From the NCBI GenBank assembly GCA_048881705.1, contig JBHLSH010000001.1, forward strand, positions 32,001 through 96,000: a stretch of 64,000 bases of DNA. Reading direction: 5' to 3'. The stretch is from Candidatus Heimdallarchaeota archaeon (GTDB lineage: Archaea; Asgardarchaeota; Heimdallarchaeia; Hodarchaeales; Hodarchaeaceae). A program made the translations under genes and the position numbers. The notes beneath the pieces are model-generated. The model was not told where the DNA came from, made no database searches, and worked only from the letters and a program-made list of their open reading frames with translations. Below, one piece after another: positions 9,918 to 57,777 of the stretch; the first letter of the stretch is position 1; each line of letters starts with the position of its first letter.

Positions 9918-12701
9918 ATGATTATTAAAGTATCCGTAAACACGATAACTATGGAAAAAAAGCTTGCTAAGGCCTATGTTCCCGCTGAATTTGAAGATGA
10001 GATTTATAGGTTCTGGGAATCGAATGATTATTTTCGACCTGAAACACAAATTGAACTAGGTCTCATAGATCGTGAAACGAGCCCAAGATTTTGTATCACA
10101 ATTCCGCTCCCGAACGTAACGGGTATCTTGCATCTAGGACACGCCTTGACCATTTCCATTGAGGATCTGATGACCCGGTATTCCCGAATGCAACAAAAAG
10201 AAACGCTGTTCATGCCAGGAACCGACCATGCAGGAATTGCGACACAGAACGTTGTAGAACGAGAACTCTTGAAACAAGGGATTAGGAGAAAAAAACTAGG
10301 GAGAGAAAAGTTCGTAGAAAAGGTATGGCAATGGAAGGAAATTTATCATGCTCGAATCACCGAGCAATCAAAAAAGATGGGGATGAGTAGTGACTGGATT
10401 CGTGAACGTTTCACATTGGATGAAATCTGCACAAAAGCAGTACGTGAAGCCTTTTATCGTTTGTATCATAAAGGATTTATCTATCGTGGCGAATACATGG
10501 TCAATTGGTGCCCACGTTGTGAATCGGCCATTTCGGATCTAGAAACAGAACCGAAGGACACTTCGAGCCACCTATGGTATATAAAATATCCAGTAAGGAC
10601 TCCGACGTGGAACGGTCCCAAATCAGAATGGGGTAGTGGAAATTGGGCAAAAGGAGCAGAAGAATTCATTATCGTGGCAACCACGCGGCCTGAAACTTTG
10701 TTGGGAGACACAGGGGTTGCTACAACCCCTGACCATAACGAATTCTCCAGATTTATAGGCCAAAATGCCATTCTCCCAGTCCTGGGCCGTGAGATCCCTA
10801 TTTTTGCAGATGAATACGTCGATCCCGAAGTTGGAACGGGAGCTCTGAAGGTCACGCCAGGACATGACCCTAATGACTTTGAAATCGGGGTAAGACACGA
10901 GCTAGATGTTGTAACAGTTCTAGATGAAAAAGCGCGTTTACTTCCACATGTTTCAGGGCCGTACGCAGGAATGAAACGGGAGGAAGGTCGAAAAGCTATT
11001 GTGACAGATCTAGAACAGGAGGGACTGCTAGTTAAGATCGAGCCATATGTTCACACCGAACCCCATTGTCAAAGATGTGCTACCGTCATCGAACCACGTG
11101 TATCAATTCAATGGTTCGTAAAAACAAAGCCTTTGGCAGAGGCGGCTATGGAGAAAGTCCGTAAGGGGGAAACAGTAATTATCCCTAAGAGGGAGGAAAA
11201 ACGATTTTTTCAATGGATGGAAAACATTAGAGACTGGTGTATTTCTCGTCAGCTCTGGTGGGGTCATCGGATTCCCATATGGTACTGTGATGATTGTTCG
11301 GAAGAAATCTGCCCGCCCCCGGATGTGGATGAACTTGCTGAATGTCCTAGGTGTAGTAGAAAGAATTTAGTGAAAGAGGAGGACGTTCTAGATACCTGGT
11401 TCTCAAGTGGTCTGTGGACTTTTTCTACACTCCATTGGCCAGACACCTCACACCCAGATTTTCAGCGATTCTATCCAACTGATACCAGGGAAACTGGCTA
11501 TGATATCCTTTTCTTCTGGGTTGCTCGAGAAATGATGTTGGGCATTGAATTAACAGGAGTAACCCCTTATCATACCGTATACCTGCACGGAATTATCAGA
11601 GATGAACGAGGGCGGAAAATAAGCAAATCTATGGAAGATGTGGAAGAATATGATCCATTACATATAATTAAGGAATATGGAGCGGATTGTTTGCGTTTTG
11701 TTCTGATATCGAACACCATTCCGGGGATTGATATCAATCTTGATCCCAGACAACTTGAGGCGGCTCACCGATTTGCCAATAAGGTCTGGCAATCCGCGAA
11801 ATATGTCCTTGGCCATATCCAAAAAGGAGACACATTCCCAACTCTGGATGAAATCGCTCCAACTCTGAGATTCGCTGATAATTGGATATTATCCCGATTA
11901 CATCAGACCATCAGATCAGTAACTGCATCCATGGAAGAAATGGATTACCTAAAAGCCGCTCGTGACATAAAAAGCTTTTATTGGAGCGAATTTTGCGACT
12001 GGTATCTTGAGATCAGCAAGATTCGTCTCCATGGAATCAATGAGGAGGCCAAGGCTGCTCCCAAGGTTATTTTACTTCATATCCTGGACAATACTCTTCG
12101 TTTACTCCATCCTATCATGCCATTCGTGACTGAAAAACTGTGGCAGCGGCTTCCAAGCTCAATACGAGTCCAACCTGCCTTGATCGTGGCCGAATGGCCA
12201 GATTCCCGTGATGATCTCGTTGACATTGATCTAGAAGAGGAATTTCTCCTTACCATGGAGCTGATTCGTGAAATCAGAAGAATTCGTGTGGACTATAATG
12301 TGAATCTCAGGGCCAAGATTCCTTTTCTTATAAGTCCAGGAGAATATGCGCCAACCTTTGAAGCAACCCGAGAAGAAATTGTGGCACTTGCAAAACTAGA
12401 TCCTAAAAAATTAGTCATATCATCAATTTCAGATTCCCCCAAGCGGGCAGCACGCGTAGTTCTTCCGGAAATTACTGCTTATGTCCCGCTTGAAGAAATT
12501 ATAGATTTGGAAAAGGAGAAGCAGCGAATCCAAACAAATTTGACCAAAATCACGAAGGATATTTCTGCTACTGTGTATAAGTTGAATGGTCCTTTCGGAG
12601 AACGGGCGCCTCCTGAAATTGTTGAACGGGAAAAAGGAATATTATCAGAACTGGAGACCAAAAAGTCTCTACTAGAGGATCAATTAAGAATTTTAAGTTG
12701 A
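9918..12701 (+). CDS. valS: Valyl-tRNA synthetase, bacterial/eukaryote type (start may be ATG 9951)
   Basis: HLGH, PGTDHAGIATQ, VATTRPET, WCISRQLWWGHRIP, DVLDTWFSS, KISKS, C-terminal coiled-coil arm. Confidence 0.97.
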   Translation: MIIKVSVNTITMEKKLAKAYVPAEFEDEIYRFWESNDYFRPETQIELGLIDRETSPRFCITIPLPNVTGILHLGHALTISIEDLMTRYSRMQQKETLFMPGTDHAGIATQNVVERELLKQGIRRKKLGREKFVEKVWQWKEIYHARITEQSKKMGMSSDWIRERFTLDEICTKAVREAFYRLYHKGFIYRGEYMVNWCPRCESAISDLETEPKDTSSHLWYIKYPVRTPTWNGPKSEWGSGNWAKGAEEFIIVATTRPETLLGDTGVATTPDHNEFSRFIGQNAILPVLGREIPIFADEYVDPEVGTGALKVTPGHDPNDFEIGVRHELDVVTVLDEKARLLPHVSGPYAGMKREEGRKAIVTDLEQEGLLVKIEPYVHTEPHCQRCATVIEPRVSIQWFVKTKPLAEAAMEKVRKGETVIIPKREEKRFFQWMENIRDWCISRQLWWGHRIPIWYCDDCSEEICPPPDVDELAECPRCSRKNLVKEEDVLDTWFSSGLWTFSTLHWPDTSHPDFQRFYPTDTRETGYDILFFWVAREMMLGIELTGVTPYHTVYLHGIIRDERGRKISKSMEDVEEYDPLHIIKEYGADCLRFVLISNTIPGIDINLDPRQLEAAHRFANKVWQSAKYVLGHIQKGDTFPTLDEIAPTLRFADNWILSRLHQTIRSVTASMEEMDYLKAARDIKSFYWSEFCDWYLEISKIRLHGINEEAKAAPKVILLHILDNTLRLLHPIMPFVTEKLWQRLPSSIRVQPALIVAEWPDSRDDLVDIDLEEEFLLTMELIREIRRIRVDYNVNLRAKIPFLISPGEYAPTFEATREEIVALAKLDPKKLVISSISDSPKRAARVVLPEITAYVPLEEIIDLEKEKQRIQTNLTKITKDISATVYKLNGPFGERAPPEIVEREKGILSELETKKSLLEDQLRILS

Positions 12702-19446: not shown

Positions 19447-21057
19447 TTGGCTGATGAGGTAATTTTTTTTTCAGATTCCCATATATCAAAGTACACAGGT
19501 CTATTTCATGAAAAAGTGTTCAACATGGGGGTTAATCTAGTCAATGAAATTCTTAATGCCCGACCCAATGCTTTTTTATTGCATCTAGGGGATATTACCG
19601 ATTCTGGGACGTATGAGGATTTTCTTTATGCAAAAAACGTACTAGATGCGAACTTTTCAAATATCGAGCGATTCTATACAATTCCTGGAAATCACGATAT
19701 GCGAAACATCGGATATCAGCTCTGGAAGGATTTCTTTGGGGAGCGTCAGTTCTTTATTGACACGAGAGAAGATGGAGGAAACATGCTCATCTTGGGAATA
19801 GACTCTTCAGAACCTGATGCGAATACTGGGATGATAGGAGATCGAGGCATAGAGGCCATTTGTGAATTAGCGAAGTATCCTGAAGATATGGTAAAGATAC
19901 TATGTTTTCATCATCATTTCCTTCCCATTCCAAATACAGGGAGGGAACGGGCAATGGTTCTAGATGCTGGCGATGTAAGGGAGGTTATTTGGGATGCAGG
20001 AATTGATATTATTGTTACCGCACACCGTCATTATCCAAATGTATTTTCTCTTTCAAACGGTGATAGAAGACTTTTGTTAATCAATTCGGGCACTTTCAGC
20101 AGTTTTAAAACGCGTGGAAGGGCGGGACATACCTTTGTTCATTTAAAGATGAATGAAAATCGTATCAAACTGAAGTTTATGGGTATCGAGGCCTATTCGG
20201 AATTCCTGCAACCCGCTCAATTTACTCAAGGTATTTCCAATGGTGAAATCACGACATACTCTCCATATGTTTTGCCTGAGGATAAGATATTGACAAAGAT
20301 CTGTCAATTTTCTGACACCCATTTTACAAATGGTAATGATTTTCTCCCCGAAGTTTATGATTTAGGCATTAAAATGATGGTTAGAGAGAAACCAAATCTA
20401 CTAGCCCATTGCGGGGACCTAACCAATGATTCGTATCCTGAGGATTTTGCTCTTGCTAAAATGAGATTACGTGAACTTCGTGAAAGTAAAATACCGTATT
20501 TAATTGTACCTGGGAAACGTGATCTTCAACCATTCGGTCGCGAGATGTTTATTGAACAGATTGGCCCGCTTGATCCCATCTTTGAAGATCCTACTGTACG
20601 CGTGGTTGGCATCAACACAGGCCCCGATGATTCAGGACATGTGGGACGTAGCCGACTTAAGATGATCCAAAGGGATTTTCATCAATATGGGTCATACAAA
20701 TTCTTTGTTGTGGTTATGCATCACTCAACGCTACCGATCCCCCGAGCAAAATTCAAGCGGAGTGTCCAAGATGCAGGAGATGTTATTAGTTTTCTTACAG
20801 GAAACCAGGTACCTCTCGTTCTTTCAGGGTTCGAACACTATGCAACCACATTACAGGTTGAAAACACCGTATTTGTGAATTCTGGAACATTCTCCAGTAG
20901 AAAAATTAGGTCACGACGATTAAATACGTTTGTGGTTATCACTGTGTACGAGAGTGGGATGATGTTGGTTGAGGAAATTGAAATCCATTCAGGATCACGT
21001 CATAGATTAGGTATTTTTAGGGTTCCACTAATACATATGAGGGAACCCAATCAATAA
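19447..21057 (+). CDS. Tandem calcineurin-like metallophosphoesterase (two domains)
   Basis: Domain 1: SDSH, GDIT, GNHD, HHH, AHRH. Domain 2: SDTH, GDLT, GKRD, HHS, GFEH. Confidence 0.9.
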   Translation: MADEVIFFSDSHISKYTGLFHEKVFNMGVNLVNEILNARPNAFLLHLGDITDSGTYEDFLYAKNVLDANFSNIERFYTIPGNHDMRNIGYQLWKDFFGERQFFIDTREDGGNMLILGIDSSEPDANTGMIGDRGIEAICELAKYPEDMVKILCFHHHFLPIPNTGRERAMVLDAGDVREVIWDAGIDIIVTAHRHYPNVFSLSNGDRRLLLINSGTFSSFKTRGRAGHTFVHLKMNENRIKLKFMGIEAYSEFLQPAQFTQGISNGEITTYSPYVLPEDKILTKICQFSDTHFTNGNDFLPEVYDLGIKMMVREKPNLLAHCGDLTNDSYPEDFALAKMRLRELRESKIPYLIVPGKRDLQPFGREMFIEQIGPLDPIFEDPTVRVVGINTGPDDSGHVGRSRLKMIQRDFHQYGSYKFFVVVMHHSTLPIPRAKFKRSVQDAGDVISFLTGNQVPLVLSGFEHYATTLQVENTVFVNSGTFSSRKIRSRRLNTFVVITVYESGMMLVEEIEIHSGSRHRLGIFRVPLIHMREPNQ

Positions 21058-21128
21058 GGCAGCTCTAGTTATGAATCTGTATTCAGACGTCACCATATCT
21101 TCTAGGCGGTAAGGGAAAAAAGGTGTCC

Positions 21129-22268
21129 CTATCGTGATTGTTTTCGATAGGAACTGATAATAACGATGATTAATCCTAAAACTGGATAAAAACCTTGTAG
21201 GACTGGGGTAAATGTAGATCTGACCATCTGGGGGACAGAGTTTGGATCCAAAGGATCACTTTTCAGATCTAATTCGACTTTATCTCCATAGGAATCATTG
21301 TCTGAATCAGATCGATTAGGAAAGGTGCCAATCTCCCATTCAAGTTTCGAAGAAAGGCCATCTTCGTCAGGATCTTTAGATGGAGATTCCGAATCCGTAG
21401 CATTTAGTGAAAATTGATATTCAAACCAATTGGGAAGATCATCTTGGTCAGGATCATTATGATCAAAGCGGTACATGAAATTCGGAAAACCATAGTTACT
21501 ACGATCTGTCCAAAACATAATATCCAGATTATGATCATCAACGGGCATATCACTTTTATTGAAGCCCCATAGACGCATCCATGTCAAATCCTCATAATCT
21601 AAGATGGAGTATGCGGCACTTCCATACCACGATTTAGGAACCTCACCTCCTTCCAGATGTTCTCCCCCGAAAAGGTGCGCTAATTCATGAAGTAGCATCA
21701 ATTGAGGTGTGGTCCACAAGCCTGGCTGATTATGGGCAATAATGAATGAATTTCCCAAGATAGCATTAGCATGATTTCCGCCTCCGTTGTATTCTTTTTG
21801 ATATATCATAAGAATGTCATATCCATTTTTCTCCAGATCTGGACTATTTATCGTTGAAGTCGGAAGCCAAGGGAGATCAATTTGAACGGCAGACATTGTA
21901 TCAAAAAGGGAGTCGTTCTCGTCAGGTGTGAATAACCAGATTTTTGCAATATGGATGTTGATCCCAAATTTCTTTTCAAATGGAGTCAACCAGGTTTTGA
22001 ATAGCCGTTGAACCGTCGAACGATTAAAAAAACTACCCAAACCGAACAGACTGTCGTCAAGTGCCAGGAGGGCCGCAATCGATCCGGTAGGCCTATAAAT
22101 ATGGGATGGTAATATTGTAGAAACACCATCCGAATTCAGAATTGCTTTATGTGGAAAAACAAGAGCGGAAGGAAGGAGGATCGAAAACATAACAAGGCAG
22201 CTGAAAACTACAGATTTCATCTTATCTGGTCTCATAATCATGGTAAGGAACTGAGCCAAAGAAACCAC
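21129..22268 (-). CDS. Secreted, membrane-anchored zincin metalloprotease with Asp-rich Ca-binding-like repeats
   Basis: HELAHLFGGEH (HExxHxxGxxH); DPDQDDLPNWFE / DPDEDGL / DSDNDSYGD repeats; N-terminal signal and C-terminal TM helix. Confidence 0.75.
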   Translation of the reverse strand: MVSLAQFLTMIMRPDKMKSVVFSCLVMFSILLPSALVFPHKAILNSDGVSTILPSHIYRPTGSIAALLALDDSLFGLGSFFNRSTVQRLFKTWLTPFEKKFGINIHIAKIWLFTPDENDSLFDTMSAVQIDLPWLPTSTINSPDLEKNGYDILMIYQKEYNGGGNHANAILGNSFIIAHNQPGLWTTPQLMLLHELAHLFGGEHLEGGEVPKSWYGSAAYSILDYEDLTWMRLWGFNKSDMPVDDHNLDIMFWTDRSNYGFPNFMYRFDHNDPDQDDLPNWFEYQFSLNATDSESPSKDPDEDGLSSKLEWEIGTFPNRSDSDNDSYGDKVELDLKSDPLDPNSVPQMVRSTFTPVLQGFYPVLGLIIVIISSYRKQSR

Positions 22269-29952: not shown

Positions 29953-32208
29953 TCAAGGTATTTCATGATCGTCGGGGGAATTTAAAATTGCTTGAATACG
30001 CTTTGCAAGTTTTTCCCCTATCTGAGGGACAACGATTAGATCATTGATTTCAGCGGACGAAATCGCCTGAATTGAGGAAAATCTCTCCAATAAATTCTTG
30101 GCCTTAGTATGATTGACTCCGGGAATGGTAGAGAGTATAAATAGCTGGATTTCCTTGATACTGTGCGTCTTTTTACCAGCACTTGGCAAAGCTATCTCCG
30201 TTATTTTTTTTTCCTGTTCTCGTTTTGCTAACTGTAGTAAAAGAGCTGTTGTTTCCGAGGGGGAGAGAGTAAATATGATAGGAATTCGAAAGTCCAGGAT
30301 AATTGAACTAATAGCTCCCATGATTGAGTTCAATGAACCATATGGGATAATTCCCTCTGGTTCCAACTGAACCACAAGTAGGGGAACCTTTTGCTGTGCC
30401 AATCGTATCAATTGGGACTCCCGGCCAGGGGAGGAGGGCTGAAATAATCGCCCGTCGTGAACCGATCTGATGAAATCGGAATAAGTCTTTAATTCTACCA
30501 CAACACGATTAGAGAGTAGATAATCCCCAACTTCAAGTCTCTCCTGTTGGATCCGTGCCCCTTCTTTTCGGAGTAACCTGGGAATCTGATCACGAGTCTC
30601 ACGTGAATCGACAATGATTAGAGGCCCTTCCACTGGCTTCCTGGCCGATGACTCCTCTGTTTCTTCTGAAAAAAACGCATCTAAAGTTGACTGGGGCTTA
30701 TGAGTCACTGTCTTTTCAAGCAACTCAGGCAACTCTTTTCGTAAAAAGGTCTTCATTAACCTGTCCTTTTGTTTTATGGCCCAGTACATGGCCTCGTCAC
30801 GCGTTTTTTTTGTTACAAGATGGATTACTCTCGATTCCTTCATCCTTCCACGTCCTTGACGCTGAATTGCACGAACAACGGATGGTACGGAGTCATAAAA
30901 TACTACAAGATCGCAGTTTCCAACATCCAATCCCTCCTCTCCAACTGATGTACTCACCAACACCTGTGTATCTCCGTTTTTAAATTCCTCCAGTACTTGG
31001 AGCTGTTTTTTTTGGGAAAGCCCTTTATCCCCTCTAGTACTAGCGTGACCAAGAAATATCCCTATCTTGATGTCTGTCTTGCTAAGTTCCTCATCAAGGA
31101 AACGAACAGTATCCCGGTAATTACTGAAAACAATGATTTTCGACTCGTTTACTTTGTCCACTCTAAGGGCGGCCTGAATTTCTTTGATAAGGAGTTTGAG
31201 TTTCGGATGAACTAAGGCAGATTCCTTCATTGTACGTTCAATATTGCGGGTACGGGAATCTTCGAGGAATAACCGTAAAGCTTTGGAGGCATGCTTGTGA
31301 CGCCATTTTTGTATCGCCTTGATTGCTTGTGGAAATCCTTGGCTTTCAACGAGTTCCTTCAAATGTTGGACCCTAATTAGGTTGGAAGATACCAGTAAGA
31401 GATTTCCATATGCTTGATCCTGTTTTGTAAGTTTTATGACCCTCTGGTGGATATCCAATGCCTCACGTTTTCCCACATATCTCTTGGTCAAGATCCCAGG
31501 TACACCTTTTTTTAGTTCAGCAATTAATTCGTCCTGAAAGACCTGAAGGCCATTAAGAATCCCCTCGTACTCCGGTGGTAGGGATATCCAAACTACTTTG
31601 GGAGTATGAATAGAGATATATTGGTTTACATCCAAATCACTTGCATCGGTGACCGAAACCTTAGAAATTTTGAGATTGTTGCACACTTCCAAGATTTTTT
31701 CTGTATTATTTCCTGGAGTAGCCGTGAAACCAACCACCTGACATGTAGCTTGAGCGGCGATTCCTACATAGGCGTAGTCACCAGTAGCGCGATGAACTTC
31801 ATCGACACATAACAATCCGATACGCTCAAAGGTAATTCGTCCAAATGTTAGGTCATTCTCGATTGTTTGGGGAGTAGCCACTATTACTCTAGCAGAGGGG
31901 TACATAGGTTCTCTTTTACTAGGTGGAACATCCCCTGAGATCTCTAACACCATTTCATCTGAAAGGTTCGGGATGACTTCAACCAAAACCTCCTTGATTT
32001 GGCGAACCAGCGGTCGAGTAGGAGTCAAAATAAGTACTTGATTTGAAGGACTTTTATTTAGGTGATAAGCCGTTAGATACGCCATGATCACCGTTTTTCC
32101 GAGTCCAGTAGGTAAAACGACCAATGTATTCCCAGGATTGGAAACAACCTCAGAGAATATGATTTGTTGATAAATGCGAGGTTCTACATCCAACAAGTTA
32201 TCGGCCAT
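29953..32208 (-). CDS. hef: Hef / FANCM-like DEAH helicase-ERCC4 nuclease
   Basis: LPTGLGKT, DEVH, STSVGEEGLD, QRQGR; PIP-box-like QSTLDAFF; ERCC4 domain VDSRE..GDY..VELKT..D; C-terminal HhH2. Confidence 0.95.
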   Translation of the reverse strand: MADNLLDVEPRIYQQIIFSEVVSNPGNTLVVLPTGLGKTVIMAYLTAYHLNKSPSNQVLILTPTRPLVRQIKEVLVEVIPNLSDEMVLEISGDVPPSKREPMYPSARVIVATPQTIENDLTFGRITFERIGLLCVDEVHRATGDYAYVGIAAQATCQVVGFTATPGNNTEKILEVCNNLKISKVSVTDASDLDVNQYISIHTPKVVWISLPPEYEGILNGLQVFQDELIAELKKGVPGILTKRYVGKREALDIHQRVIKLTKQDQAYGNLLLVSSNLIRVQHLKELVESQGFPQAIKAIQKWRHKHASKALRLFLEDSRTRNIERTMKESALVHPKLKLLIKEIQAALRVDKVNESKIIVFSNYRDTVRFLDEELSKTDIKIGIFLGHASTRGDKGLSQKKQLQVLEEFKNGDTQVLVSTSVGEEGLDVGNCDLVVFYDSVPSVVRAIQRQGRGRMKESRVIHLVTKKTRDEAMYWAIKQKDRLMKTFLRKELPELLEKTVTHKPQSTLDAFFSEETEESSARKPVEGPLIIVDSRETRDQIPRLLRKEGARIQQERLEVGDYLLSNRVVVELKTYSDFIRSVHDGRLFQPSSPGRESQLIRLAQQKVPLLVVQLEPEGIIPYGSLNSIMGAISSIILDFRIPIIFTLSPSETTALLLQLAKREQEKKITEIALPSAGKKTHSIKEIQLFILSTIPGVNHTKAKNLLERFSSIQAISSAEINDLIVVPQIGEKLAKRIQAILNSPDDHEIP

Positions 32209-44495: not shown

Positions 44496-45254
44496 TTAGG
44501 ATTCTTTGTCACGTTGAGTTTTTATTATAAAGGCCGTCATTTTCCTGACATCGTTTTTCATTGAGGCAAGTTCTGCAACAACTTTTTCCTCTACCGCATT
44601 GTTAATTGCCTGGCTTAATAAATCAGGGAGAGCTGCAATTGTTTGGGTCAATTGGGTTATAATATTAGTCAATCTGTTCAACGATTCATCTTGCATTGCC
44701 AGCCGCTCTGTCACTGAAGTTTTTAATTCGTTTACACTCGCTTCCAGATAGATAGTAATGCGATCTTTTAAGGCAACCAACTCGACCTGAATAATAGCAT
44801 GTACACGATCCCGAAGATCTGCAACAGCAGCCAGCTGATCAGTTTGGTTTTCGATTAATGCGTTTAATCGTCCCTCAATGATTTCGAGCTTGTCCGAAAT
44901 TGGAACAAAATTGCTCACACTCACTTCGTAAAGATTCTTAATCTGCCCGGTTGAGCCGGAAACTGTAGCTTCGATCTCTTGAGCGAGTTTACGGATTGGT
45001 CCGACCACATCTTCAAGGTAGCTCACCTTGATAAACTTGAGATCTTTTTTTGTCTCTTCCGTAGCACCCGTGAATGTATTTTGAAATTCATCCAAGGAAC
45101 TTTGAAGAGTTCTTAGAAGAATAGGGAGTTGTTCCACACTCTGGATCGTTTCAATACTAAGATTCTGCGGGGATGTATGTTGGATTTGCCGAATAGCGTC
45201 TATAATCTCAACAGCCATTTCTTCTATTGATTTAATACCTGCTTCGATTCCCAT
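44496..45254 (-). CDS. All-helical coiled-coil hypothetical protein
   Basis: 252 aa of continuous amphipathic heptads, no motifs. Confidence 0.75.
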   Translation of the reverse strand: MGIEAGIKSIEEMAVEIIDAIRQIQHTSPQNLSIETIQSVEQLPILLRTLQSSLDEFQNTFTGATEETKKDLKFIKVSYLEDVVGPIRKLAQEIEATVSGSTGQIKNLYEVSVSNFVPISDKLEIIEGRLNALIENQTDQLAAVADLRDRVHAIIQVELVALKDRITIYLEASVNELKTSVTERLAMQDESLNRLTNIITQLTQTIAALPDLLSQAINNAVEEKVVAELASMKNDVRKMTAFIIKTQRDKES

Positions 45255-45556: not shown

Positions 45557-46633
45557 TTATTTAAGTCGTCGAAGTAACTCAACGTAGCGCTTGTTATGAA
45601 GAAGAGATTCGTTCAATCTACTAATCATCACTAAAGTCTCAGAAAGAATGTATTGCTTTAAATCATTCCCAGTTGCCCGTTCGATGTCAGCATAAATATC
45701 CTTAGCGACACTAAACGATACATTCGGAATACGTGATTCAAGATCACCTCCTCCAAGATTATAATTCTGAAGAAGAATTCGTGAGGCACGTTGGGAATCT
45801 TGCAAGCTTCGTTCCTCTATTAAAAACTGCGAAATGCCAATATAATAGCGCGAAATAATATCACGAATCTGTTCCAAATCAGTCGGTTCAACTTCAGATT
45901 CCTGGAGGTCAGGAAACATTTTTTTTAGATTCTGAAGCAGTCGAGCAGAGGGAGCTTCACGCAGCAGTTTACTGATTATTGTTCGTAGGTGTGCCGTGGG
46001 AATCTGTAAGATTTCCGAATCGTGCGAATGAGAGTATTGGGGTTGAATCTCATAGGACAGAAGATCTTTGCAGGCCGCAAGATAATAGTTCGGAAAGCCC
46101 AGATGTGATAAAGCGGAATAAGAGCTGATTAGTGATTCAATCGACTCAATGATACCCCATTTGTCTATTGTTTGGGATTTCCTGAGAAAAATCCCGGCCT
46201 CAGTACTACCAGCTGGGGGGATAGCTTCTGTGTAGGCAGTTGCTTTTGTTGTGTTTTCGGCCATCGTCTCCTGGAGTCTTTTTAGCTCAGCTTCAAGTCC
46301 TTCTATCTTTTCGAGTAGTTTAAGCCCCGAAACAGGTTGTATTAACAATTGGTGAATATAATTTTCAACCAGTTTGATCTCACTACGTAATGATTTAGGA
46401 ATTGTACTGGGTTCTCCAATGTACTGAATAATTGTCGTAACCAGTTGGAGAAGTACAAGAACTAACCCCGTAATGATGTTGATTTTTTCGCCAATGTTTC
46501 CACGGGAATTCCAAAACTCAGGGTATCGCATCAATTGTTGAGATTTAAAATCGGAGGTTGATGGATTTATGGAGGAGGATGTAGATTCATCTTTTCCTCG
46601 TTGATGATTTTCGTCCACAGTATAGGCATCCAC
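45557..46633 (-). CDS. Hypothetical protein (one hydrophobic segment plus coiled coil); last gene of tubulin-like operon
   Basis: GTG start directly abuts the upstream TAA; IITGLVLVLLQLVTTIIQY segment. Confidence 0.75.
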   Translation of the reverse strand: MDAYTVDENHQRGKDESTSSSINPSTSDFKSQQLMRYPEFWNSRGNIGEKINIITGLVLVLLQLVTTIIQYIGEPSTIPKSLRSEIKLVENYIHQLLIQPVSGLKLLEKIEGLEAELKRLQETMAENTTKATAYTEAIPPAGSTEAGIFLRKSQTIDKWGIIESIESLISSYSALSHLGFPNYYLAACKDLLSYEIQPQYSHSHDSEILQIPTAHLRTIISKLLREAPSARLLQNLKKMFPDLQESEVEPTDLEQIRDIISRYYIGISQFLIEERSLQDSQRASRILLQNYNLGGGDLESRIPNVSFSVAKDIYADIERATGNDLKQYILSETLVMISRLNESLLHNKRYVELLRRLK

Positions 46634-48034
46634 TTACTCATTCGAGGTTTTTTGATCAGGTGTAATATAATATCCGAAAAGTTTCTCTAGATCATCGACC
46701 GCAGAAACCAGCGCACCTCTGGTTGTACCTTTAGATCTTTGAAACCAATGTTGTTTAAGTTCAGAGCTGCCGCTATGGAGATCGATGAGTGCTTTGGCTT
46801 CCTGCAAAATATCATAAAGCTCTGGGATTCGGGGGAGCCCAAAAAGTAAGAGTAAGGATGCTCTCGCATCATCATCATCATATGCGCAATATGTGGGAGA
46901 AATGCTAGCCCCTTTAGCAAGAAAAGGTGATAGCGCCTTTTTAAGTAAGGGATCAAATTCCACACGAGCAATCTCACGTGGTCCAGAGAGTACGGAAAAT
47001 ACCGATGATGCTGATGGATTGGTACCCATTTCTGTTAAGCTTCCATGACCCGCAGTGTATTCAACTGCAGTAGATAGTTGTGATCCGACTCCACCAACTT
47101 CAGGAAAGATCGCCAGATCATCAAACATGGCAGGGACAACCACACTATCAAGTTTTAATGCAAAGTCTCCAATATCCGTGGTTGGAAGTACCTCTTTACC
47201 TACTTCAGGTACCCCAGGTGACAGCATCTCCGCAATAGACTCCAAGGCCAAGGGATTTACCAACTCGACAAAAGCTTCTTCCATGTGAGGTATTTGAGTT
47301 GAATTTACACCTCCCAAAACCCCTCCCAAAGGGGAGGCGGTCTGCATGGGACCAGAAGTTTTAGATGTAGATAGATTTGATAGATCTTCTCCGGTCTGTC
47401 GACTTAATAGATCCACAGCTTCACCCCTTTGCATACTTAGAACACGTTCGAGCATTGTTCGATTAGAAAGCAAGAGGATGAGATCGGGCCCCATATTATC
47501 CTCCTCTAATTGAAGGCGTAATAGCTTGGATAATGCCCAAACACTATTCACGGCTTCTGATGACTGATTCAGAAAAGGTAGAACTCCAAAGACGTAAATA
47601 AATATTTTTCGTTTCTCTTGTTCTGCAAATCGTTTTCGAAGTAGTCGAATTAAAGCAGGAGTTCCCCCACAGCCAGTACCCCCTCCAAACGATGTTAAAA
47701 GGATGAATCCAGAAATACCCTCATAACCAAGCGATTGGAGTTGGTTGAGAACGATATCTTCCGAATTTAGCACTGCATCGTAACCAGCTGCGAATTTTCC
47801 GCCAACACCAATCTCGGCATCAGAATAGAGAAGAGTTCTTTTTGAGGAAATTGAATACTTCTTACGTGCTTTTAATAGGTCTCCACGATCTGTATTCATA
47901 ATCAAATATTCCCGTATCCGATGTGGAAGCTCCCCTCGGTTCGAACGAGCCAAATAGCTTCCAAGCAGGTTACTACCACATTCACCAATTCCTATTGCAA
48001 ATATTTCAGATTCTATTCCTTCCAATGCCATCAC
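46634..48034 (-). CDS. Divergent tubulin/FtsZ-superfamily GTPase (CetZ/tubulin-like)
   Basis: GIGECGSN (T1), NTD, GVGG (T3), SFGGGTGCGG signature (T4), VLPF, SN, TDIGDF (T7). Confidence 0.93.
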   Translation of the reverse strand: MMALEGIESEIFAIGIGECGSNLLGSYLARSNRGELPHRIREYLIMNTDRGDLLKARKKYSISSKRTLLYSDAEIGVGGKFAAGYDAVLNSEDIVLNQLQSLGYEGISGFILLTSFGGGTGCGGTPALIRLLRKRFAEQEKRKIFIYVFGVLPFLNQSSEAVNSVWALSKLLRLQLEEDNMGPDLILLLSNRTMLERVLSMQRGEAVDLLSRQTGEDLSNLSTSKTSGPMQTASPLGGVLGGVNSTQIPHMEEAFVELVNPLALESIAEMLSPGVPEVGKEVLPTTDIGDFALKLDSVVVPAMFDDLAIFPEVGGVGSQLSTAVEYTAGHGSLTEMGTNPSASSVFSVLSGPREIARVEFDPLLKKALSPFLAKGASISPTYCAYDDDDARASLLLLFGLPRIPELYDILQEAKALIDLHSGSSELKQHWFQRSKGTTRGALVSAVDDLEKLFGYYITPDQKTSNE

Positions 48035-48056
48035 AATTCACATACCTTGACAAAAT

Positions 48057-51000
48057 TCAGTCTAAATTAACGCTAGTTTTATTTTCAATAAAAAGCCTCA
48101 TAACAAGGGATAAATAGGCTTGAATCACGTTGTTTTGGGGATACGTCTCCTTGATTTTCTTTTTGATGTCTTTGTACTGCCTAAGATTCTCCTCTGGGTT
48201 TTCAGTAGGAGTATATCGAGGACGAAACATCCTAATGGCCCGATGCCAACGATTCAATTGGTTTGATACCTTAACCCATTCTACACGTTTTTGGTCAATA
48301 AAAGGGAGAAGCTCTAGAATGCGTTTCAAACTTTGAGAATGCGTGAGCTCCTCTCTTGCCTTGATGAGCTCAGAAAGAGGGTAAATTGAGTCTGAAGCTT
48401 CCTCAGAAAATCGAGAAAAGACTTCTTGAATACTAGAGTAGTATTTCAACTGCCCTAGTTCAGCCTGCAGAGCAATCGAGCGGTCTGCTTCCACGACCTT
48501 AATAGTATCGCTCACCTGTCTTGAAACTTGATTCAAACGAATTAAAGCCTCCGTCAGATGTCCCACATGAGTAACAGATGATAATTTCTGAAACACACCT
48601 ATCGCGGAAAAATCCAACCGATTATCTTGGCTTAAGTTTCGATTATGATATTGAGCTAGATAGTTAATCGCGGCGTTGATACTCTGTATGATTTGATCGC
48701 CCATGGACCGAATCTCTCTACACGCTGCTGAATCGGTTTGGAGGCTGTCAATCTCTGTAAAAACCTCAGTAATCTCCTTTATGTTAACATCTTCCTGATT
48801 TTTAACAAGTACTTGGGAGAAACGTTCAATGTAGCCTCCTACATGGCTGATGATAGATATTCCCATGTCTTTCAAATCATTGACATTTTTGAGAATCTTC
48901 TTCGATTCAACAACCGCTTGCGCCAGAAGAATAGCCACTATTTCGGTATCATACAAAAAGATCAGTTGTCTAAGTTTATTTGCCAGGCGTTCATGTGAGA
49001 CATCTTCGACCTCGAAATCTGCTATTTTTGTTTCTGCCGCGAAAACAGCTGCATCGACAGGTACAATCTCGTTTATTCTTGGAAGACTAACCCGTAGCCA
49101 ATTGTGGAGATTCTGATGCAGCTTTGCTAGGGAATTCTTAGCTAATTGTAATGATTCTAATGAATAACTCTCATAGATGTTAACCAACTGCACTATGTCC
49201 TTATGAGTCTTGATTTCTTCCATTCTCTCTCGCATAAGGGAAATAGGTTCCTCAAAGAATTCAGCATACTGAGGGGGCAGCTTGGAATAATCTTGAATGT
49301 GACTATGAATCTCCCGTTCCATCTGTTCTGTTAAGGCGGCCACACGCCGTTCTATATAAGCATTTAATTGCCAATACTCTGTTAAGGCTTCAGAGTAATC
49401 GAGAACATCAAATTCTCTTTCCGTGGAAAACGTAGGAGAGGTTCGACGTGATTTCAACAACCGATATAAGCGTTTATCTACCTCCTCCAAATTCTCAATC
49501 TGTTTTTTTAATTCTACCAATATCTCATTCTTATATTCTTCAATAGTTCTTAGAAATCCAATATATTCTTGGATCATGGCCTCCATGTTTCCGTCTTCTG
49601 ACAACTGATCGATATTACCAATAATCTCATTCCGCTTTTCACGAAGATCGAAACGTGTCTCAATAGGAATCAAAGGGAAGGGGATCGCTTTGAGATTCTC
49701 ACGAACTCGAGTTGCTATTTTGTATTTCCAGACAGGTATCTTTTCATATTCATCCAAGAGCTGGGGAAGCCCCTCTTCAGCTGCAATGGCGATACCATCT
49801 CGGAAGGCCTTCAAATCGTCTAGTGCTAAGACGGGAACATGAGCTTTTAATTTTGGAGGTATGGTTTCTAGGATTGTGAGTTGGCTGTATATTGGATTTA
49901 TCTCCGCATCAATCGCAGATAAGATCTCCGTGCGGATGGTTGATTTGAGACGAGTCAGGATGTCTATCTCTCTAACGAGTTCTCGTATTTCTTTGTCCTC
50001 CACACTCTTTTGTTTCCGCTGTGTCTCAATTTGTTGTGTTGTTGGTTCCGATAACAGCTTTTGGAGGCTTTCTCGAGAGTCTAACAAATTGAGAAGGTTT
50101 TGTCGCAGACTTTGCTGAGCTGGCTTGGAAAAAAACGCGACCAATCGGGTTTCCCAGTCCTTAATCTCGCGGGCTTTCGCAACCAATTCACTAGGAGCGA
50201 AATCCTTAAGGTCACGGATGATAGGAATTTGAGGTCCCTCACTAACGTTAATGGCTTCTTGAATGTATGGGTTCTCCAAAAGCCGATAGAAATACTGTTG
50301 ACAAGCATCAGCTAACATCGCTAGGAGATCGAAGTATCGTTGAACCAAGGCCATCCAGGTTGACATATTCTGAGCGTTTTTTGCATCTTTATCAATTATA
50401 CGGAGTTCTTTAGTAAATTCTTCTGGAATAGGTATCTTCATGGCTTTGATTGTCTTTCCTGCGTTCATGAGAGCGGCGGTGCTGATTAAATCCCTAGTTG
50501 CCAAGACTTGGTTTTGCTGCCATGTTCGGAGCTTTTCGATATCTCGGATAATTTCAGAAAGATCTGTTGTTGAAACATTTATTTCTGGAGCAGAAGCTAG
50601 GGAAGATTCTAGACCCAGTTTGCCCGAGATTTGGAGAATTCGGCCTATTCTTTCTTCAGTTTCAGCCTTTAAAGAGATTTCATATGTTCTAAGAGAGTTT
50701 AGGAATTCCGAGTTGAGTTCATTAAGTCCCTTTTCCCATAATATTAAGGATTCAACTGAGCTACTGTCTTCGGCATTGCTTTTAATTTCCTGAACTTGAT
50801 CCTTGAGAAGATTGATCTTGTCACCCAGCTCACTAGCCAAACTAATAGAGGTGACAGTGTCGAGATGTTGTTGAAGTTCGGAAGACATCTGGATGATCGC
50901 GACCTGAATCTTACCTTCGGTGCCTTTTCGGCGTTGTTTCAAATAGGCGCTTTCGGTCTCGAGATGATTATAGAGCTCAAGTAGATCAGAGACACCCATG

Positions 51001-51614
51001 ACGTGTACCGCATTTTTTGTTGTTCTCCTGGTTACCTGGATTTTTTCCTCATCAAAATCCACGAACTTGGTGTAAAGATCCAAGATCTCCCTATTATGAA
51101 CCAAAATTGCGATATTTTTTCCCCGTAAAATCTCCGAAATCTGGCTATGGGTCTTCAGGACGTTGGTACTGAAATTCAGAATCTGTTGAGGATCAAAACT
51201 AGGAATTTGAAGAGCCCGAATATTGTCAGTCTCTTGCGGGATAAATTTAGCGATTTCTTTGATGTTGTTAGCCAAATCAAAGTAAATCTTTCGATACCCA
51301 GTTAATAAGCTCTCTGTCAAATTCTCAGTAAGTTCGCGATATTTTCCTTCTTTTTGCGCCAAACTTTTCTTGAGACCACGCTTTTTGAAAAAACCTGCGT
51401 CAGGAAGGTCTTTTTTTATCCTTTCTATTTCAGTTACCAGCTTTTGTGCTTCGTTAAGCGGAGAGATAATTTGCACCATAGGATCTAATGACCTTAGTTC
51501 TGTAGCTAATCCACCAATCTCGTGCAGTTGTTCCTTTGAGACGTGACTCATGCGTGTATCTGATGACATAACCACCAATTCCACTAAATTCGAATTAAAG
51601 CTTATTAAGGGCAT
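48057..51614 (-). CDS. Giant alpha-helical repeat / coiled-coil protein (1185 aa; start may be ATG 51569)
   Basis: Entirely amphipathic helices with recurring 60-75-aa units; no Walker motifs or TM helices; GGTGG SD before 51569. Confidence 0.85.
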   Translation of the reverse strand: MPLISFNSNLVELVVMSSDTRMSHVSKEQLHEIGGLATELRSLDPMVQIISPLNEAQKLVTEIERIKKDLPDAGFFKKRGLKKSLAQKEGKYRELTENLTESLLTGYRKIYFDLANNIKEIAKFIPQETDNIRALQIPSFDPQQILNFSTNVLKTHSQISEILRGKNIAILVHNREILDLYTKFVDFDEEKIQVTRRTTKNAVHVMGVSDLLELYNHLETESAYLKQRRKGTEGKIQVAIIQMSSELQQHLDTVTSISLASELGDKINLLKDQVQEIKSNAEDSSSVESLILWEKGLNELNSEFLNSLRTYEISLKAETEERIGRILQISGKLGLESSLASAPEINVSTTDLSEIIRDIEKLRTWQQNQVLATRDLISTAALMNAGKTIKAMKIPIPEEFTKELRIIDKDAKNAQNMSTWMALVQRYFDLLAMLADACQQYFYRLLENPYIQEAINVSEGPQIPIIRDLKDFAPSELVAKAREIKDWETRLVAFFSKPAQQSLRQNLLNLLDSRESLQKLLSEPTTQQIETQRKQKSVEDKEIRELVREIDILTRLKSTIRTEILSAIDAEINPIYSQLTILETIPPKLKAHVPVLALDDLKAFRDGIAIAAEEGLPQLLDEYEKIPVWKYKIATRVRENLKAIPFPLIPIETRFDLREKRNEIIGNIDQLSEDGNMEAMIQEYIGFLRTIEEYKNEILVELKKQIENLEEVDKRLYRLLKSRRTSPTFSTEREFDVLDYSEALTEYWQLNAYIERRVAALTEQMEREIHSHIQDYSKLPPQYAEFFEEPISLMRERMEEIKTHKDIVQLVNIYESYSLESLQLAKNSLAKLHQNLHNWLRVSLPRINEIVPVDAAVFAAETKIADFEVEDVSHERLANKLRQLIFLYDTEIVAILLAQAVVESKKILKNVNDLKDMGISIISHVGGYIERFSQVLVKNQEDVNIKEITEVFTEIDSLQTDSAACREIRSMGDQIIQSINAAINYLAQYHNRNLSQDNRLDFSAIGVFQKLSSVTHVGHLTEALIRLNQVSRQVSDTIKVVEADRSIALQAELGQLKYYSSIQEVFSRFSEEASDSIYPLSELIKAREELTHSQSLKRILELLPFIDQKRVEWVKVSNQLNRWHRAIRMFRPRYTPTENPEENLRQYKDIKKKIKETYPQNNVIQAYLSLVMRLFIENKTSVNLD

Positions 51615-51730
51615 TTAATATTGAATCTAGATCAATGAAATTATAGTTCCTTTTAAATTCTTATCATTTGGAAGTCCTGATTACGGTTGAAAACTGTATG
51701 TGACATCATGTATGAGAGATTCAATATGCT

Positions 51731-54490: not shown

Positions 54491-56812
54491 ATGGATAGTG
54501 AGGAACATTTGTCAACTAATGGTAAATTACTCCTATTAAAGGTCGCCGAGGCAAATCAGAGTGATGTTGGTCGAGGATTAGTTCGGATTGACTATAAGAT
54601 CATGAGAGAATCCAATCTTGAGACTGGTGATATAGTAGAGATTAGTAAAGATCCAGGTAATGGGCGGAAAACGGGTGCCCTAGTAATTCCTGGACGCCAA
54701 GAAGATCGGGGAAAGCGTATTATTCGCATGGATGGCCTGATTCGCGGGAATGTAGGAACGTCTCTGGGAGAAACGGTTCGCGTTAGACCAATCAAAAAAC
54801 GTATTGCACGGCGAATTGTAATTGCTCCTGCTGAGGAACGCATACGATTATTAGTAAAACCTGAAATCATCCAAGAACGTCTTCAGAATCACCCGTTATC
54901 GCGTGGTGATCTACTGGTCATTATGGGGCAAATTCGGAAGATTCCCCCCTCAGGCGGACCGGGTACAGGTACTGGGATGGACGACTTTATTTCAAGGTTT
55001 TTTGGTGCTTCCCGCCCCGTAAGTCTCGGGGAAATAAAGGTGGTAGTCGTATCTACAGACCCTGATGGCATTGTGACGGTAGGGGAATCCACAATCGTAG
55101 AGATCATTGAAGAGGCTCCAAAGGATCTTCGAATGTTACCACGTGTAACCTATGAGGACATTGGAGGTCTCTCAGAAGAGATTAAGCGAGTACGGGAGAT
55201 GATTGAGTTACCGATGAAACACCCCGAACTGTTCGAGCGGCTGGGTATTGATCCGCCAAAAGGGGTGTTGTTGCACGGGCCCCCAGGGACAGGAAAAACT
55301 TTGTTGGCTAAAGCGGTGGCCAATGAATCTGGAGTTAATTTTGTCTCCATTGCAGGCCCCGAAATAATGAGCAAATTTTATGGAGAGAGCGAACAACGTA
55401 TTCGGGAGATCTTCAAACAATCCGAAAAAGATGCCCCCAGCATCATTTTTATTGATGAACTTGACTCGATAGCGGCCAAACGCGAAGAAGTGACTGGAGA
55501 AGTCGAACGCCGAGTCGTTGCACAACTTCTCGCACTAATGGATGGATTGAAAAGCCGAGGTAAAGTAATTGTGATTGGGGCAACTAATCGGCCTAATGCG
55601 CTTGATCCTGCCCTCCGAAGGCCTGGGCGCTTTGATAGGGAGATAGAAATTGGGGTACCCGACCAAAATGGACGGTACGAGGTTCTTCTTGTCCATACAC
55701 GAGGTATGCCGTTGGCTGAAGATGTTGACCTAAGAGAATACGCAGCTAAGACGCATGGATTTGTTGGAGCTGATCTTGCTGCGCTAATCAAAGAGGCTGC
55801 TATGCATACTCTTCGTAAAATCCTCCCTAAGATCGATTTTGATAAACCTCTAACCCCAGAAATATTGTCAAAGTTAATAGTGTCCAATGAAAACTTTGAT
55901 GAGGCATTAAAAATAACTGAACCCTCAGCCATGCGAGAAGTATTACTTGAAATACCGAATATCAGATGGGAGGATATAGGAGGCCTTGAGGATGTTAAAC
56001 AACAGCTGAAAGAAGCGGTGGAATGGCCAATCACATATCCTCAAATCTTTAAAAAACATGGGGTCACCCCACCGCATGGAATTCTGTTATATGGCCCCCC
56101 TGGGACCGGAAAAACCTTGTTAGCTAAGGCAGTAGCCACTGAAAGCCAAGCGAATTTCATCGCAATTCGCGGCCCAGAGCTTCTTTCGAAATGGGTGGGT
56201 GAGAGTGAAAAGGCTATAAGAGATGTGTTCCGTAAGGCCAAACAAGCTAGCCCTTCGATTATATTTCTAGATGAACTAGATGCCATTGCTCCACGTCGAG
56301 GGGTTTTTAGCGGCGGAAGTCATGTAATGGAAAGCGTGGTAAATCAAATCCTGTCATTGATAGATGGTCTTGAGAATCTGAGAGATGTTGTAGTGCTAGC
56401 AGCCTCAAATCGACCAGATATGATTGATCCAGCCCTTCTAAGACCAGGCAGGTTTGATCGGCTGCTTTTGGTTAAATCCCCAGATGTTTCTTCACGTGAA
56501 AAAATCTTACGAATCCACACACGGAAAATGCGGTTAGGAAAAGACGTTAATCTGGTTCAGTTGGCAGATGATCTTGAAAGTTATGTTGGTGCCGATATTG
56601 AAGCTATATGCCGGGAAGCAGTGATGATTGCACTACGAGACGATCTAAATATTGAAACAATTGAAATGAGGCATTTTGAAGCTGCAAAAAAGATTGTTCA
56701 TGCCAGTTCTGGACCAGAAATTGAGCAACGATTCCAAGAACTAGAACGAAAACTCCTTGGCAAGTCAGAAATCGGGAGAAAAGACGTCCTTGGCTTGAAG
56801 GATTATCTATGA
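54491..56812 (+). CDS. cdc48: CDC48/VAT AAA+ ATPase
   Basis: N-domain plus two AAA modules (GPPGTGKT twice; FIDELD, FLDELD; RPGRFDR twice). Confidence 0.97.
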
Positions 56813-56838
56813 TTTACCAAAACCGTCTTCATTTTCGA

Positions 56839-57777
56839 TCAGGAAGATCTCTTTTTATAGAGATCCAATGGCCATTGTTTTTCAAACATCCGTCGTAATA
56901 CAGCCGACGAGAATTGTTCAATTTCGATGGGTTGGGCGGCTGACTTCATTATCCGCTCTGAAATCAGCTTTGCTCGTACTACCGAATCCGAATATCCAAT
57001 GATGAGCCCTACCACCAAGGGATAGTTTTTCACGATGACCAACTGCAAATCCGATGCTGTTACTACCTCCATTCCAACTGGATTTTCATCCAATCTTGAT
57101 ACCGTTTCGGAGAGTCCAGCATTTATCGCATCTAGAATCTCAGGATTAACCGATACAAACTTGGTGGTATAAATTTTGTGGGATTCAAGGTCGATAAGGA
57201 TAACCTGACGAACTTTGCACTTAAATGTTGATTCTTTTCCCGCGATAACGTCGGCGAGCCAGTCGAAGGCATCATAGAAGTTTTCTCCTGTTTTTGCTGA
57301 TACACGAAATAGACCCACGGGTCTATTTGTAGAACGAGTGGCCCGTGTTAAATCCAAATCCTGGACAATTAGTTCAAAGGCACGTGCTCCAGGTAGGTCT
57401 ATTTTATTCGCGATGAATAACACAGGTGCTTTTTCGTTGCGTTTAATAGAATCCCAAAAAGCATCTGAAGCTTCAGAGATACGAATATCAGCGCTATCTA
57501 GGACGAATACAATTGCATTAGCTTTATCTAGGGAGGCATCCCAGAGTAAATTTCTGTAAATTTGTTGCCCACCAAGATCCACGAGATTAAACTCTATTTG
57601 TCGGTATTTTACTGTACGATAATTAACCCCTAATGTTCTAGTTGTAGGAATGAACTCTGAACGAAGTAAGCGGTTCACAATCGTAGTCTTACCAGCTCCA
57701 TCTAATCCGATAATGACGATTTGACTTGTTTCTGTTTTTGGCTTTCCTTTAAAGAACCTTCTAAGGATACTCGACAT
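56839..57777 (-). CDS. Arf-like small GTPase fused to C-terminal longin/roadblock-like domain
   Basis: GLDGAGKT, DLGGQ, NKID, VSAK; amphipathic N-terminus MSSILRRFF; about 135-aa beta/alpha C-terminal domain. Confidence 0.92.
   Translation of the reverse strand: MSSILRRFFKGKPKTETSQIVIIGLDGAGKTTIVNRLLRSEFIPTTRTLGVNYRTVKYRQIEFNLVDLGGQQIYRNLLWDASLDKANAIVFVLDSADIRISEASDAFWDSIKRNEKAPVLFIANKIDLPGARAFELIVQDLDLTRATRSTNRPVGLFRVSAKTGENFYDAFDWLADVIAGKESTFKCKVRQVILIDLESHKIYTTKFVSVNPEILDAINAGLSETVSRLDENPVGMEVVTASDLQLVIVKNYPLVVGLIIGYSDSVVRAKLISERIMKSAAQPIEIEQFSSAVLRRMFEKQWPLDLYKKRSS

Follow-up and report, generated by a model that had tools for sequence, protein, structure and literature searches.

A co-inherited three-gene unit built around an Asg.Tub-family GTPase in Asgard archaea

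The 64,000-nucleotide (nt) stretch of DNA considered here (the window; positions 32,001 to 96,000 of contig JBHLSH010000001.1 from a Candidatus Heimdallarchaeota archaeon) carries three consecutive minus-strand genes at positions 45557-51614, which an earlier note made from the sequence had proposed as a candidate new cytoskeletal system consisting of a giant helical rod, a tubulin-like GTPase, and a membrane-associated partner. This raises the question of whether the three genes belong together at all and, if so, whether they encode a system that has not been seen before. As claimed in that note, the longest open reading frames (ORFs) encode, in the direction of the minus strand, a long all-helical protein of 1185 amino acids (aa) (48057-51614), a tubulin/FtsZ-superfamily GTPase of 466 aa (46634-48034), and a small helical protein of 358 aa (45557-46633), referred to below as the long partner, the GTPase, and the small partner. 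The junctions likewise read as described: the TGA of the long-partner gene is followed after 22 nt by a GTG-ATG pair opening the GTPase gene, and the TAA of the GTPase gene directly abuts the GTG of the small-partner gene (0 nt between the longest ORFs). The database entries begin each protein slightly later, at M16 for the long partner (position 51569, giving 1170 aa), at the ATG one codon in for the GTPase (a candidate start at 48031), and at a GTG five codons in for the small partner (giving 353 aa). Because of the later start of the small partner, the gap between the last two genes may be 15 nt rather than 0, although none of these starts materially changes the three-gene picture. The genes are real, intact, and tightly packed.

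To place the arrangement in context, we compared 30 loci from nine Asgard families, 25 of which are primary copies. Operon conservation across Asgard genomes, which the earlier note had named as a check on its proposal, was clear: the order long partner, GTPase, small partner on one strand is kept in 24 of the 25 primary loci and across all nine families, the sole exception being a locus cut off at the GTPase gene by the end of its contig; the genes are separated by gaps or overlaps of only a few to ~20 nt, and adjacent locus tags in public records agree with this. Such an arrangement is far beyond chance. Each family sampled has a long-partner homolog upstream of the GTPase gene. When all ORFs of the 30 loci were clustered, no fourth neighbor common to the families emerged; therefore, the unit consists of exactly three genes. 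Both partners are clearly homologous across classes judging from their alignments, as the Hod-type and Thor-type proteins share 20-28% identity with BLASTP expectation (E) values of 5e-19 and 6e-11 for the long partner and 7e-27 for the small partner.

The same picture emerged from whole-genome searches of 400 Asgard genomes, in which the GTPase was found in 125, the small partner in 123, and the long partner in 129 (a prevalence of ~31%), with the set of positive families being identical for all three components. In several families the module is nearly universal, with GTPase tallies of 20/21 (family f1), 15/19 (f12), 5/5 (f28), and 75/89 over three pooled families (mostly f31), while f4 (0/31), f20 (0/135), and the remaining negative families have none of the three. 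By public labels, the positive lineages include Hodarchaeales/'Heimdallarchaeota' LC-3, Thorarchaeota, and Baldrarchaeia. The small partner occupies one locus per genome and stands beside the GTPase gene wherever both could be mapped, except in a single Thor-type genome (G387). The module is chromosomal and mostly present in one copy per genome, its sequence identities follow taxonomy, and its flanks vary by lineage and hold ordinary housekeeping genes. The three genes are a co-inherited, vertically inherited Asgard unit around a tubulin-superfamily GTPase.

Is the GTPase itself new? The protein passes the Pfam Tubulin model PF00091 with 57.3 bits (cut-off 33; E value 3.3e-15; residues 10-172), which bears out the superfamily assignment made previously. 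On sequence grounds, it is a member of the published Asg.Tub family rather than the founder of another. Asg.Tub was defined in 2023 as a 'novel CetZ-like group in Asgardarchaeota' from the four sequences OLS26264.1, PWI48967.1, KXH77455.1, and OLS30664.1 (Santana-Molina, del Saz-Navarro and Devos 2023, PMC9871819). The window GTPase is 54% identical to the first of these (P0060) over 99% of the query (E value 1.2e-151), and the other three founding sequences carry its motifs. In the published trees, Asg.Tub does not fall within the canonical CetZ node and sits on a long branch (1.6-2.1 substitutions per site), and its placement was unstable between CetZ and the tubulins, with the authors judging it closer to CetZ; they also found its C-terminal domain to be family-specific and its genomic context to consist of unknown genes, mostly with coiled coils, on which no conclusion was drawn (PMC9871819). 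We found no bench study or characterization of Asg.Tub or its neighbors, and no description of either partner family, in the literature searched. Thus, the part of the earlier proposal that stands is the arrangement, which resembles no described operon, whereas the GTPase had already been published and its neighbors already noted as unknown coiled-coil genes. What is new here, within the literature searched, is the fixed and co-inherited three-protein composition together with two orphan partner families that had not been described.

Our own comparisons agree with a position near CetZ. When the family profile was searched against solved structures, CetZ gave the best matches at 6.6e-14 (4b46), 6.1e-8 (4b45), and 1.3e-8 (3zid), compared with 1e-6 to 1e-5 over ~100 residues for the tubulins (including OdinTubulin, gamma-tubulin, BtubA/B, and AtubA), and the alignments to solved structures covered the N-terminal domain only in every case. 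Among 1.84 billion representatives, the family appears as two full-length clusters (E values 4e-162 and 2e-95), after which the matches fall to 4e-20 and below. In a tree whose outgroups are unnamed nearest relatives, which includes no named CetZ sequences and leaves the family unrooted, the Asg.Tub members form a tight clade; their own branches are short, and 3-10 substitutions per site separate them from the nearest outsiders. The named matches are labeled as Asgard, save for a few members of the Baldr-type cluster labeled as Bathyarchaeota, Thermofilum, or Odin. The restriction to Asgard archaea is judged from these named matches and the 400 Asgard genomes, other phyla not having been searched genome by genome.

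Three better known identities were also considered for the GTPase. Canonical FtsZ is ruled out, as the protein scores 25.2 bits against a TIGR00065 cut-off of 295.2 and has no FtsZ_C domain (PF12327) at E values up to 1. Canonical CetZ was rejected since no CetZ_C domain (PF21011) was found at E values up to 1 in the protein or in the whole genome, while the same model does match in Haloferax volcanii. A bona fide tubulin was rejected as well, given the absence of Tubulin_C (PF03953) at E values up to 1 and tubulin profile matches of only 1e-6 to 1e-5. The nearest relative outside of the family is P0237, which is 30% identical (E value 4e-20) and encoded on a Logan contig (SRR7811641; L066:7001-9149). 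Upstream of it there is no long-partner gene. A 262-aa gene overlaps it downstream and faintly resembles the small partner in the F-x-W-G...L-E-x-R-I motif (hhalign probability 21%); the locus may represent a very distant two-gene version of the module.

The next question is whether this GTPase is likely to form polymers. In an alignment of 22 divergent relatives (39-85% identity), the T1 loop GIGECGSN, the G-box (T4) GGGTGCGG at residues 117-124, and the T6 motif SNRTM are all invariant or nearly so, with the G-box carrying a Cys in place of the usual Ser/Thr of the signature GGGTG(S/T)G. The T7 stretch P-T-T-D287-x-x-D290 is invariant and aligns with S-V-T-D-L-G-D-F of the CetZ structure 3zid. 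The T7 acidic pair completes the active site only across the longitudinal contact between subunits. Since every nucleotide-binding loop and this acidic pair are kept, the GTPase probably polymerizes. Its sequence is also far more constrained than those of its partners, with a mean column identity of 58% versus 24% for the long partner and 34% for the small partner, and a comparison of Hod-type with Thor-type genomes still gives 52-54% identity for it. Polymer interfaces would leave such a mark, and a constraint this strong is characteristic of the superfamily members that form polymers. The two-domain tubulin fold is predicted for the GTPase by its ESM Atlas model (predicted template modeling score, pTM, 0.82). 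With predicted models on both sides of the comparison, the model aligns over both domains, as far as residue ~414-429, with CetZ clusters (template modeling (TM) scores of 0.66-0.68 by query and 0.79-0.82 by target), and over residues 7-462 with eukaryotic tubulin clusters (TM score of 0.72). As the latter alignments reach residue 460-462, the structural comparison agrees in part with a tubulin-like character for the last predicted helices. Asg.Tub would most likely assemble GTP-dependent protofilaments, for which both the nucleotide pocket and the catalytic T7 loop are intact.

The long partner has no Pfam family. Its AlphaFold2 (AF2) model consists of helices only, many of them ~40 residues long, with a predicted local distance difference test (pLDDT) value of 83.9 and a pTM of 0.41, the low pTM being expected of an elongated or flexible protein. 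The helical-repeat character suggested earlier finds support both in this all-alpha model and in internal repeats aligned by hhalign with probabilities of 90-95%, compared with <4% for column-reversed controls. The repeats recur at offsets of 130, 258-264, 387-394, 509-532, and 660 residues, which gives about nine diverged repeats with a period of ~130 residues, and not of 65-70, each containing about three long helices. Conservation peaks in the C-terminal 130 residues (W1113, W1123, H1124, and Y1167) and is lowest over residues 391-650. Across relatives the protein ranges from 900 to 1300 residues, and residues 366-750 of the window protein match only ~124 residues of an 895-aa Thor protein; thus, the ends are fixed while the number of repeats in the middle varies, which is compatible with a spacer or cross-linker.

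Searches for a known relative of the long partner returned little. In Foldseek, the best match was RNF213 at an E value of 0.015, followed by dynein heavy chains at E values of 0.1-1 and TM scores of 0.1 or less, and a VIA-wide structure search yielded generic three-helix bundles (Z 10-11 over ~75-80 residues, a range common for helical bundles). Pfam gave no match to the GRIP1 and GRIP2 domains (PF17681, PF04130) at E values up to 1, no GCP/GRIP-like gamma-tubulin partner appeared in fold searches of the whole 1185-residue model, and there was no Pfam spectrin match. When the profiles of both partner families were searched against PDB sequences, only low-complexity helical matches were found (apolipoprotein A-I, 0.002).

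A further clue to function comes from elsewhere in the same genome. On another contig, the source genome (91% complete) encodes a separate canonical FtsZ that contains both Tubulin and FtsZ_C domains (G000:C37; L001:856-2151), and this is the only canonical FtsZ found in it. Because it coexists with the Asg.Tub GTPase, a role other than core division is likely for the latter, and the module would work beside canonical FtsZ rather than in its place. No match to SepF (Pfam PF04472) was found in the source genome, which incompleteness or divergence could explain; the same model matches in seven control genomes, three of them archaeal. A third PF00091 match in this genome (G000:C126; L003:1435-2466) of 22 bits is a false positive, as it corresponds to the quinolinate synthase NadA (E value 8e-105). 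The nadA gene adjoins a quinolinate phosphoribosyltransferase gene.

Taking these observations together, we think it fairly likely that the locus is a copy of an Asgard-specific, vertically inherited three-protein module centered on a polymerizing Asg.Tub. The long partner would be a rod or spacer of ~130-residue three-helix repeats that serves as a filament-associated scaffold, bundler, or tether, with its conserved ends carrying the likely binding sites and its variable middle setting a distance. The small partner would be a dedicated adaptor or regulator acting through its conserved C-terminal domain. We infer the polymerization, the mutual binding of the three proteins, and a cellular role in shape, protrusions, or membrane remodeling. 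Several points weigh against this proposal. Polymerization, binding between any two of the three proteins, and transcription are inferred rather than seen directly. The pTM of 0.41 is consistent with a long partner that is either a rod or folded, and the partners belong to no recognizable family or fold, so their roles are unconstrained. Moreover, co-inheritance among related genomes does not supply independent evidence for each genome counted. Finally, many congeners carry a second and divergent pair of long-partner and GTPase genes without a relative of the small partner, and therefore the small protein is not always required.

This second pair, which was not found in the window's genome, encodes a GTPase 52-55% identical and a long protein 23% identical to those of the window. 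In the three loci whose flanks were inspected (L056:8020-12780, L057:4560-9331, and L005:4569-9326), it adjoins large Arf/Gtr1-family GTPase genes on the opposite strand. The duplication may be either old or fast-evolving. A 311-aa gene upstream of the pair was considered as a possible relative of the small partner and rejected (hhalign probability 0.15%). Other variants of the module are also found. A locus in one congener (L065:9655-13263; G058:C96) contains an extra 1202-aa ORF resembling the long partner between the GTPase gene and the regular long-partner gene (E value 8e-122 to the family profile), apparently a tandem duplication. In G387 (contig C69), the GTPase gene lies at 11304-12614 and the small-partner gene at 20866-21918, ~8 kb downstream, which suggests an insertion into the module. 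The Baldr-type loci (L038-L040) are the most divergent, with a GTPase ~40% identical to that of the window and a long protein of ~1025 aa; the longest frames of their three genes abut or overlap by up to ~35 nt, and in several Baldr-type genomes the match to the long-partner family profile crosses one stop codon.

As for alternatives, the small partner could be a membrane anchor. The earlier note had described it as a membrane-associated protein with one hydrophobic segment and a coiled coil, and its transmembrane helix might place it in a role like that of FtsA, ZipA, or SepF, with the long partner cross-linking filaments under the membrane. Some of the evidence is in keeping with this. Averaged over 19 residues, the Kyte-Doolittle value of the hydrophobic helix of the window protein, INIITGLVLVLLQLVTTII, is 2.35 and those of close orthologs range from 1.5 to 2.25, the small-partner gene is tightly coupled to the GTPase gene, and PF04472 detected no SepF in the 91% complete source genome. 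However, the equivalent helix reaches only 1.1-1.8 in the Thor-type, Baldr-type, and other clades, where it contains N, S, T, H, E, D, K, or R, and even several Hod-type orthologs have a K or R at mid-helix. In the AF2 model (pLDDT 78.5 overall), the same helix is packed as helix 1 of an N-terminal three-helix bundle (residues 38-128), though at a modest pLDDT of 55-70. As the helix is transmembrane-like only in the Hodarchaeales-type clade (1.5-2.35) and is packed into a bundle, a transmembrane anchor is not a property of the family and is at most a clade-specific feature. Thus, the segment reported previously is present in the window without being a family feature, the putative coiled coil models as a three-helix bundle, and the description of the partner as membrane-associated is not supported in that form. 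The conserved part of the small-partner family is instead its soluble C-terminal domain. This domain (residues 145-358) follows a disordered linker, is alpha-helical in the AF2 model with pLDDT >90, and contains the invariant residues D157, P181, P228, L232, G294, E299, R301, and K358. Overall, we consider a membrane anchor of this kind unlikely.

The small partner has no Pfam family and no SepF domain, and fold searches (Foldseek against the PDB, VIA-wide, and ESM Atlas) returned nothing at an E value of 0.001 or a TM score of 0.5, the lists being dominated by generic three-helix bundles on residues 35-136 with the C-terminal domain barely covered. A predicted complex of the GTPase and the small partner received a score of 0.02 (mark 0.32), which says nothing either way.

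A slightly weaker alternative is that the partners serve as assembly factors or regulators of the GTPase, whether as a chaperone, nucleator, capper, or sequestering or depolymerizing factor, in the manner of the tubulin cofactors or MinC/SulA. Co-distribution and tight coupling would suit regulators no less than structural components; in addition, the sequences of the partners change far more quickly than that of the GTPase, and the paralogous pair does without the small partner altogether. In contrast, a repeat rod that spans 900-1300 residues, keeps its ends conserved, and varies in its number of repeats would be unusual for a chaperone or inhibitor, and no similarity to known regulators was found in Pfam or in profile searches against PDB sequences. 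Improbable, in our judgment, is a GTPase that does not polymerize and instead acts as a GTP-dependent switch or as a subunit of a stable, non-filamentous complex scaffolded by the long partner. This would accommodate a sequence alignment to solved relatives that is limited to the N-terminal GTPase domain, a C-terminal domain that is family-specific, and a variable insert of ~45-70 residues that the alignment of the 22 relatives reveals ahead of helix H7. However, it sits poorly with the invariance of an acidic pair that is active only across a subunit contact, with the full two-domain tubulin fold predicted for the protein, and with the very strong constraint typical of polymer formers. That the module serves DNA segregation or a mobile element, in the manner of TubZRC or PhuZ, is exceedingly improbable. 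Phage and TubZ-like clusters do occur among the ESM Atlas neighbors (TM scores of 0.62-0.63), but neither mobile-element genes nor centromere repeats adjoin the module, and no gene beside it is TubR-like or otherwise DNA-binding; it is chromosomal, mostly single-copy, flanked by lineage-specific sets of ordinary housekeeping genes, and related from genome to genome as taxonomy predicts.

The three-protein module centered on Asg.Tub is of interest in part because of its hosts, since no known organisms are more closely related to eukaryotes than Asgard archaea, especially the Hodarchaeales, and the cytoskeletons of these archaea are central to models of eukaryogenesis. Bona fide tubulins are said to occur in ~1% of Asgard genomes, and earlier work centered on them and on FtsZ. 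The Asg.Tub module, present in ~31% of the 400 genomes, is much more common and strongly conserved. With its composition defined, what was an orphan clade in a phylogeny becomes a concrete system open to expression and imaging, and the module offers two partner families without a Pfam family or a clear structural match. A bolder possibility, which we hold to be rather doubtful, is that Asg.Tub and its two orphan partners constitute an unseen kind of archaeal cytoskeleton, in which a GTP-driven filament would be spaced or cross-linked by a rod of three-helix repeats that varies in length, and connected to cellular targets by a small adaptor. Such a system would date back to the common ancestor of the Hod-type, Thor-type, and Baldr-type lineages, and could represent an early tubulin-family polymer with accessories resembling microtubule-associated proteins or spectrin on the lineage leading to eukaryotes.

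The immediate surroundings of the module were also inspected. Upstream of the long-partner gene is a divergent intergenic region of 116 nt (51615-51730; minus strand with respect to the module), which by eye contains a TATA-like TTTAAAA at 51657-51651, ~40 nt 5' of the first ATG, and could be a candidate promoter for all three genes. Around the module lie genes for an amidohydrolase, a MoCF-type protein, Cdc48, an Arf-like GTPase, and a nucleotidyl transferase, together with unknowns. A domain check of the neighbors in the window confirmed that no SepF, division, mobile-element, TubR-like, or other DNA-binding gene adjoins the module, as the earlier note had also reported. The Cdc48-type double AAA ATPase (773 aa) and the 312-aa Arf-family GTPase with a C-terminal extension (together at 54491-57777) are located 3-6 kb upstream of the module, and their pairing with it is not kept in other families. 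On the other side, 300 nt downstream of the module and on the same strand, is a 252-aa helical protein (44496-45254, minus) with a weak apolipoprotein-like match (20.6 bits). As it is found beside the module only within the genus and not in other families, it is a local neighbor rather than a fourth component.

How does the module compare with known systems? Like the FtsZ-SepF pair of archaeal division, it combines a GTPase of this superfamily with a small gene for a putative adaptor, but its GTPase reaches only 25 bits against the TIGR00065 cut-off of 295 and lacks FtsZ_C, and its small partner has no SepF domain. With the plasmid and phage segregation filaments TubZRC and PhuZ it shares a three-gene logic of a tubulin-like filament with adaptors, whereas it has no DNA-binding adaptor, centromere, or mobile context and is chromosomal and vertically inherited. 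Like CetZ, the cell-shape protein of haloarchaea and euryarchaea, Asg.Tub is an archaeal tubulin-superfamily paralog outside of division that exists alongside FtsZ; CetZ is among its best structure matches, yet only the N-terminal domain aligns by sequence and CetZ_C is absent. To our knowledge, no partner genes of this kind accompany CetZ. BtubA/B-BtubC of Prosthecobacter and AtubA/B of Asgard archaea similarly combine a superfamily polymer with a tight operon and a dedicated all-helical accessory, BtubC being a repeat protein that stabilizes the filament (PMC9871819). However, BtubA/B and AtubA/B belong to the bona fide tubulins and assemble into heterodimers and mini-microtubules, while the module has a single GTPase gene that is far from tubulin (E value ~1e-6) and partners without a detected relation to BtubC. 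The long partner resembles spectrin-type rods in its tandem repeats of three long helices, a likeness of architecture only and not of homology, since a spectrin repeat spans ~106 residues rather than ~130 and Pfam gives no spectrin match. The closest comparison remains the published Asg.Tub, which shares with the window locus its family, its motifs, and its unknown, mostly coiled-coil neighbors (PMC9871819); where that description was built on four sequences, the partner families are defined here as homologous across classes and co-distributed with the GTPase in ~125 of 400 genomes.

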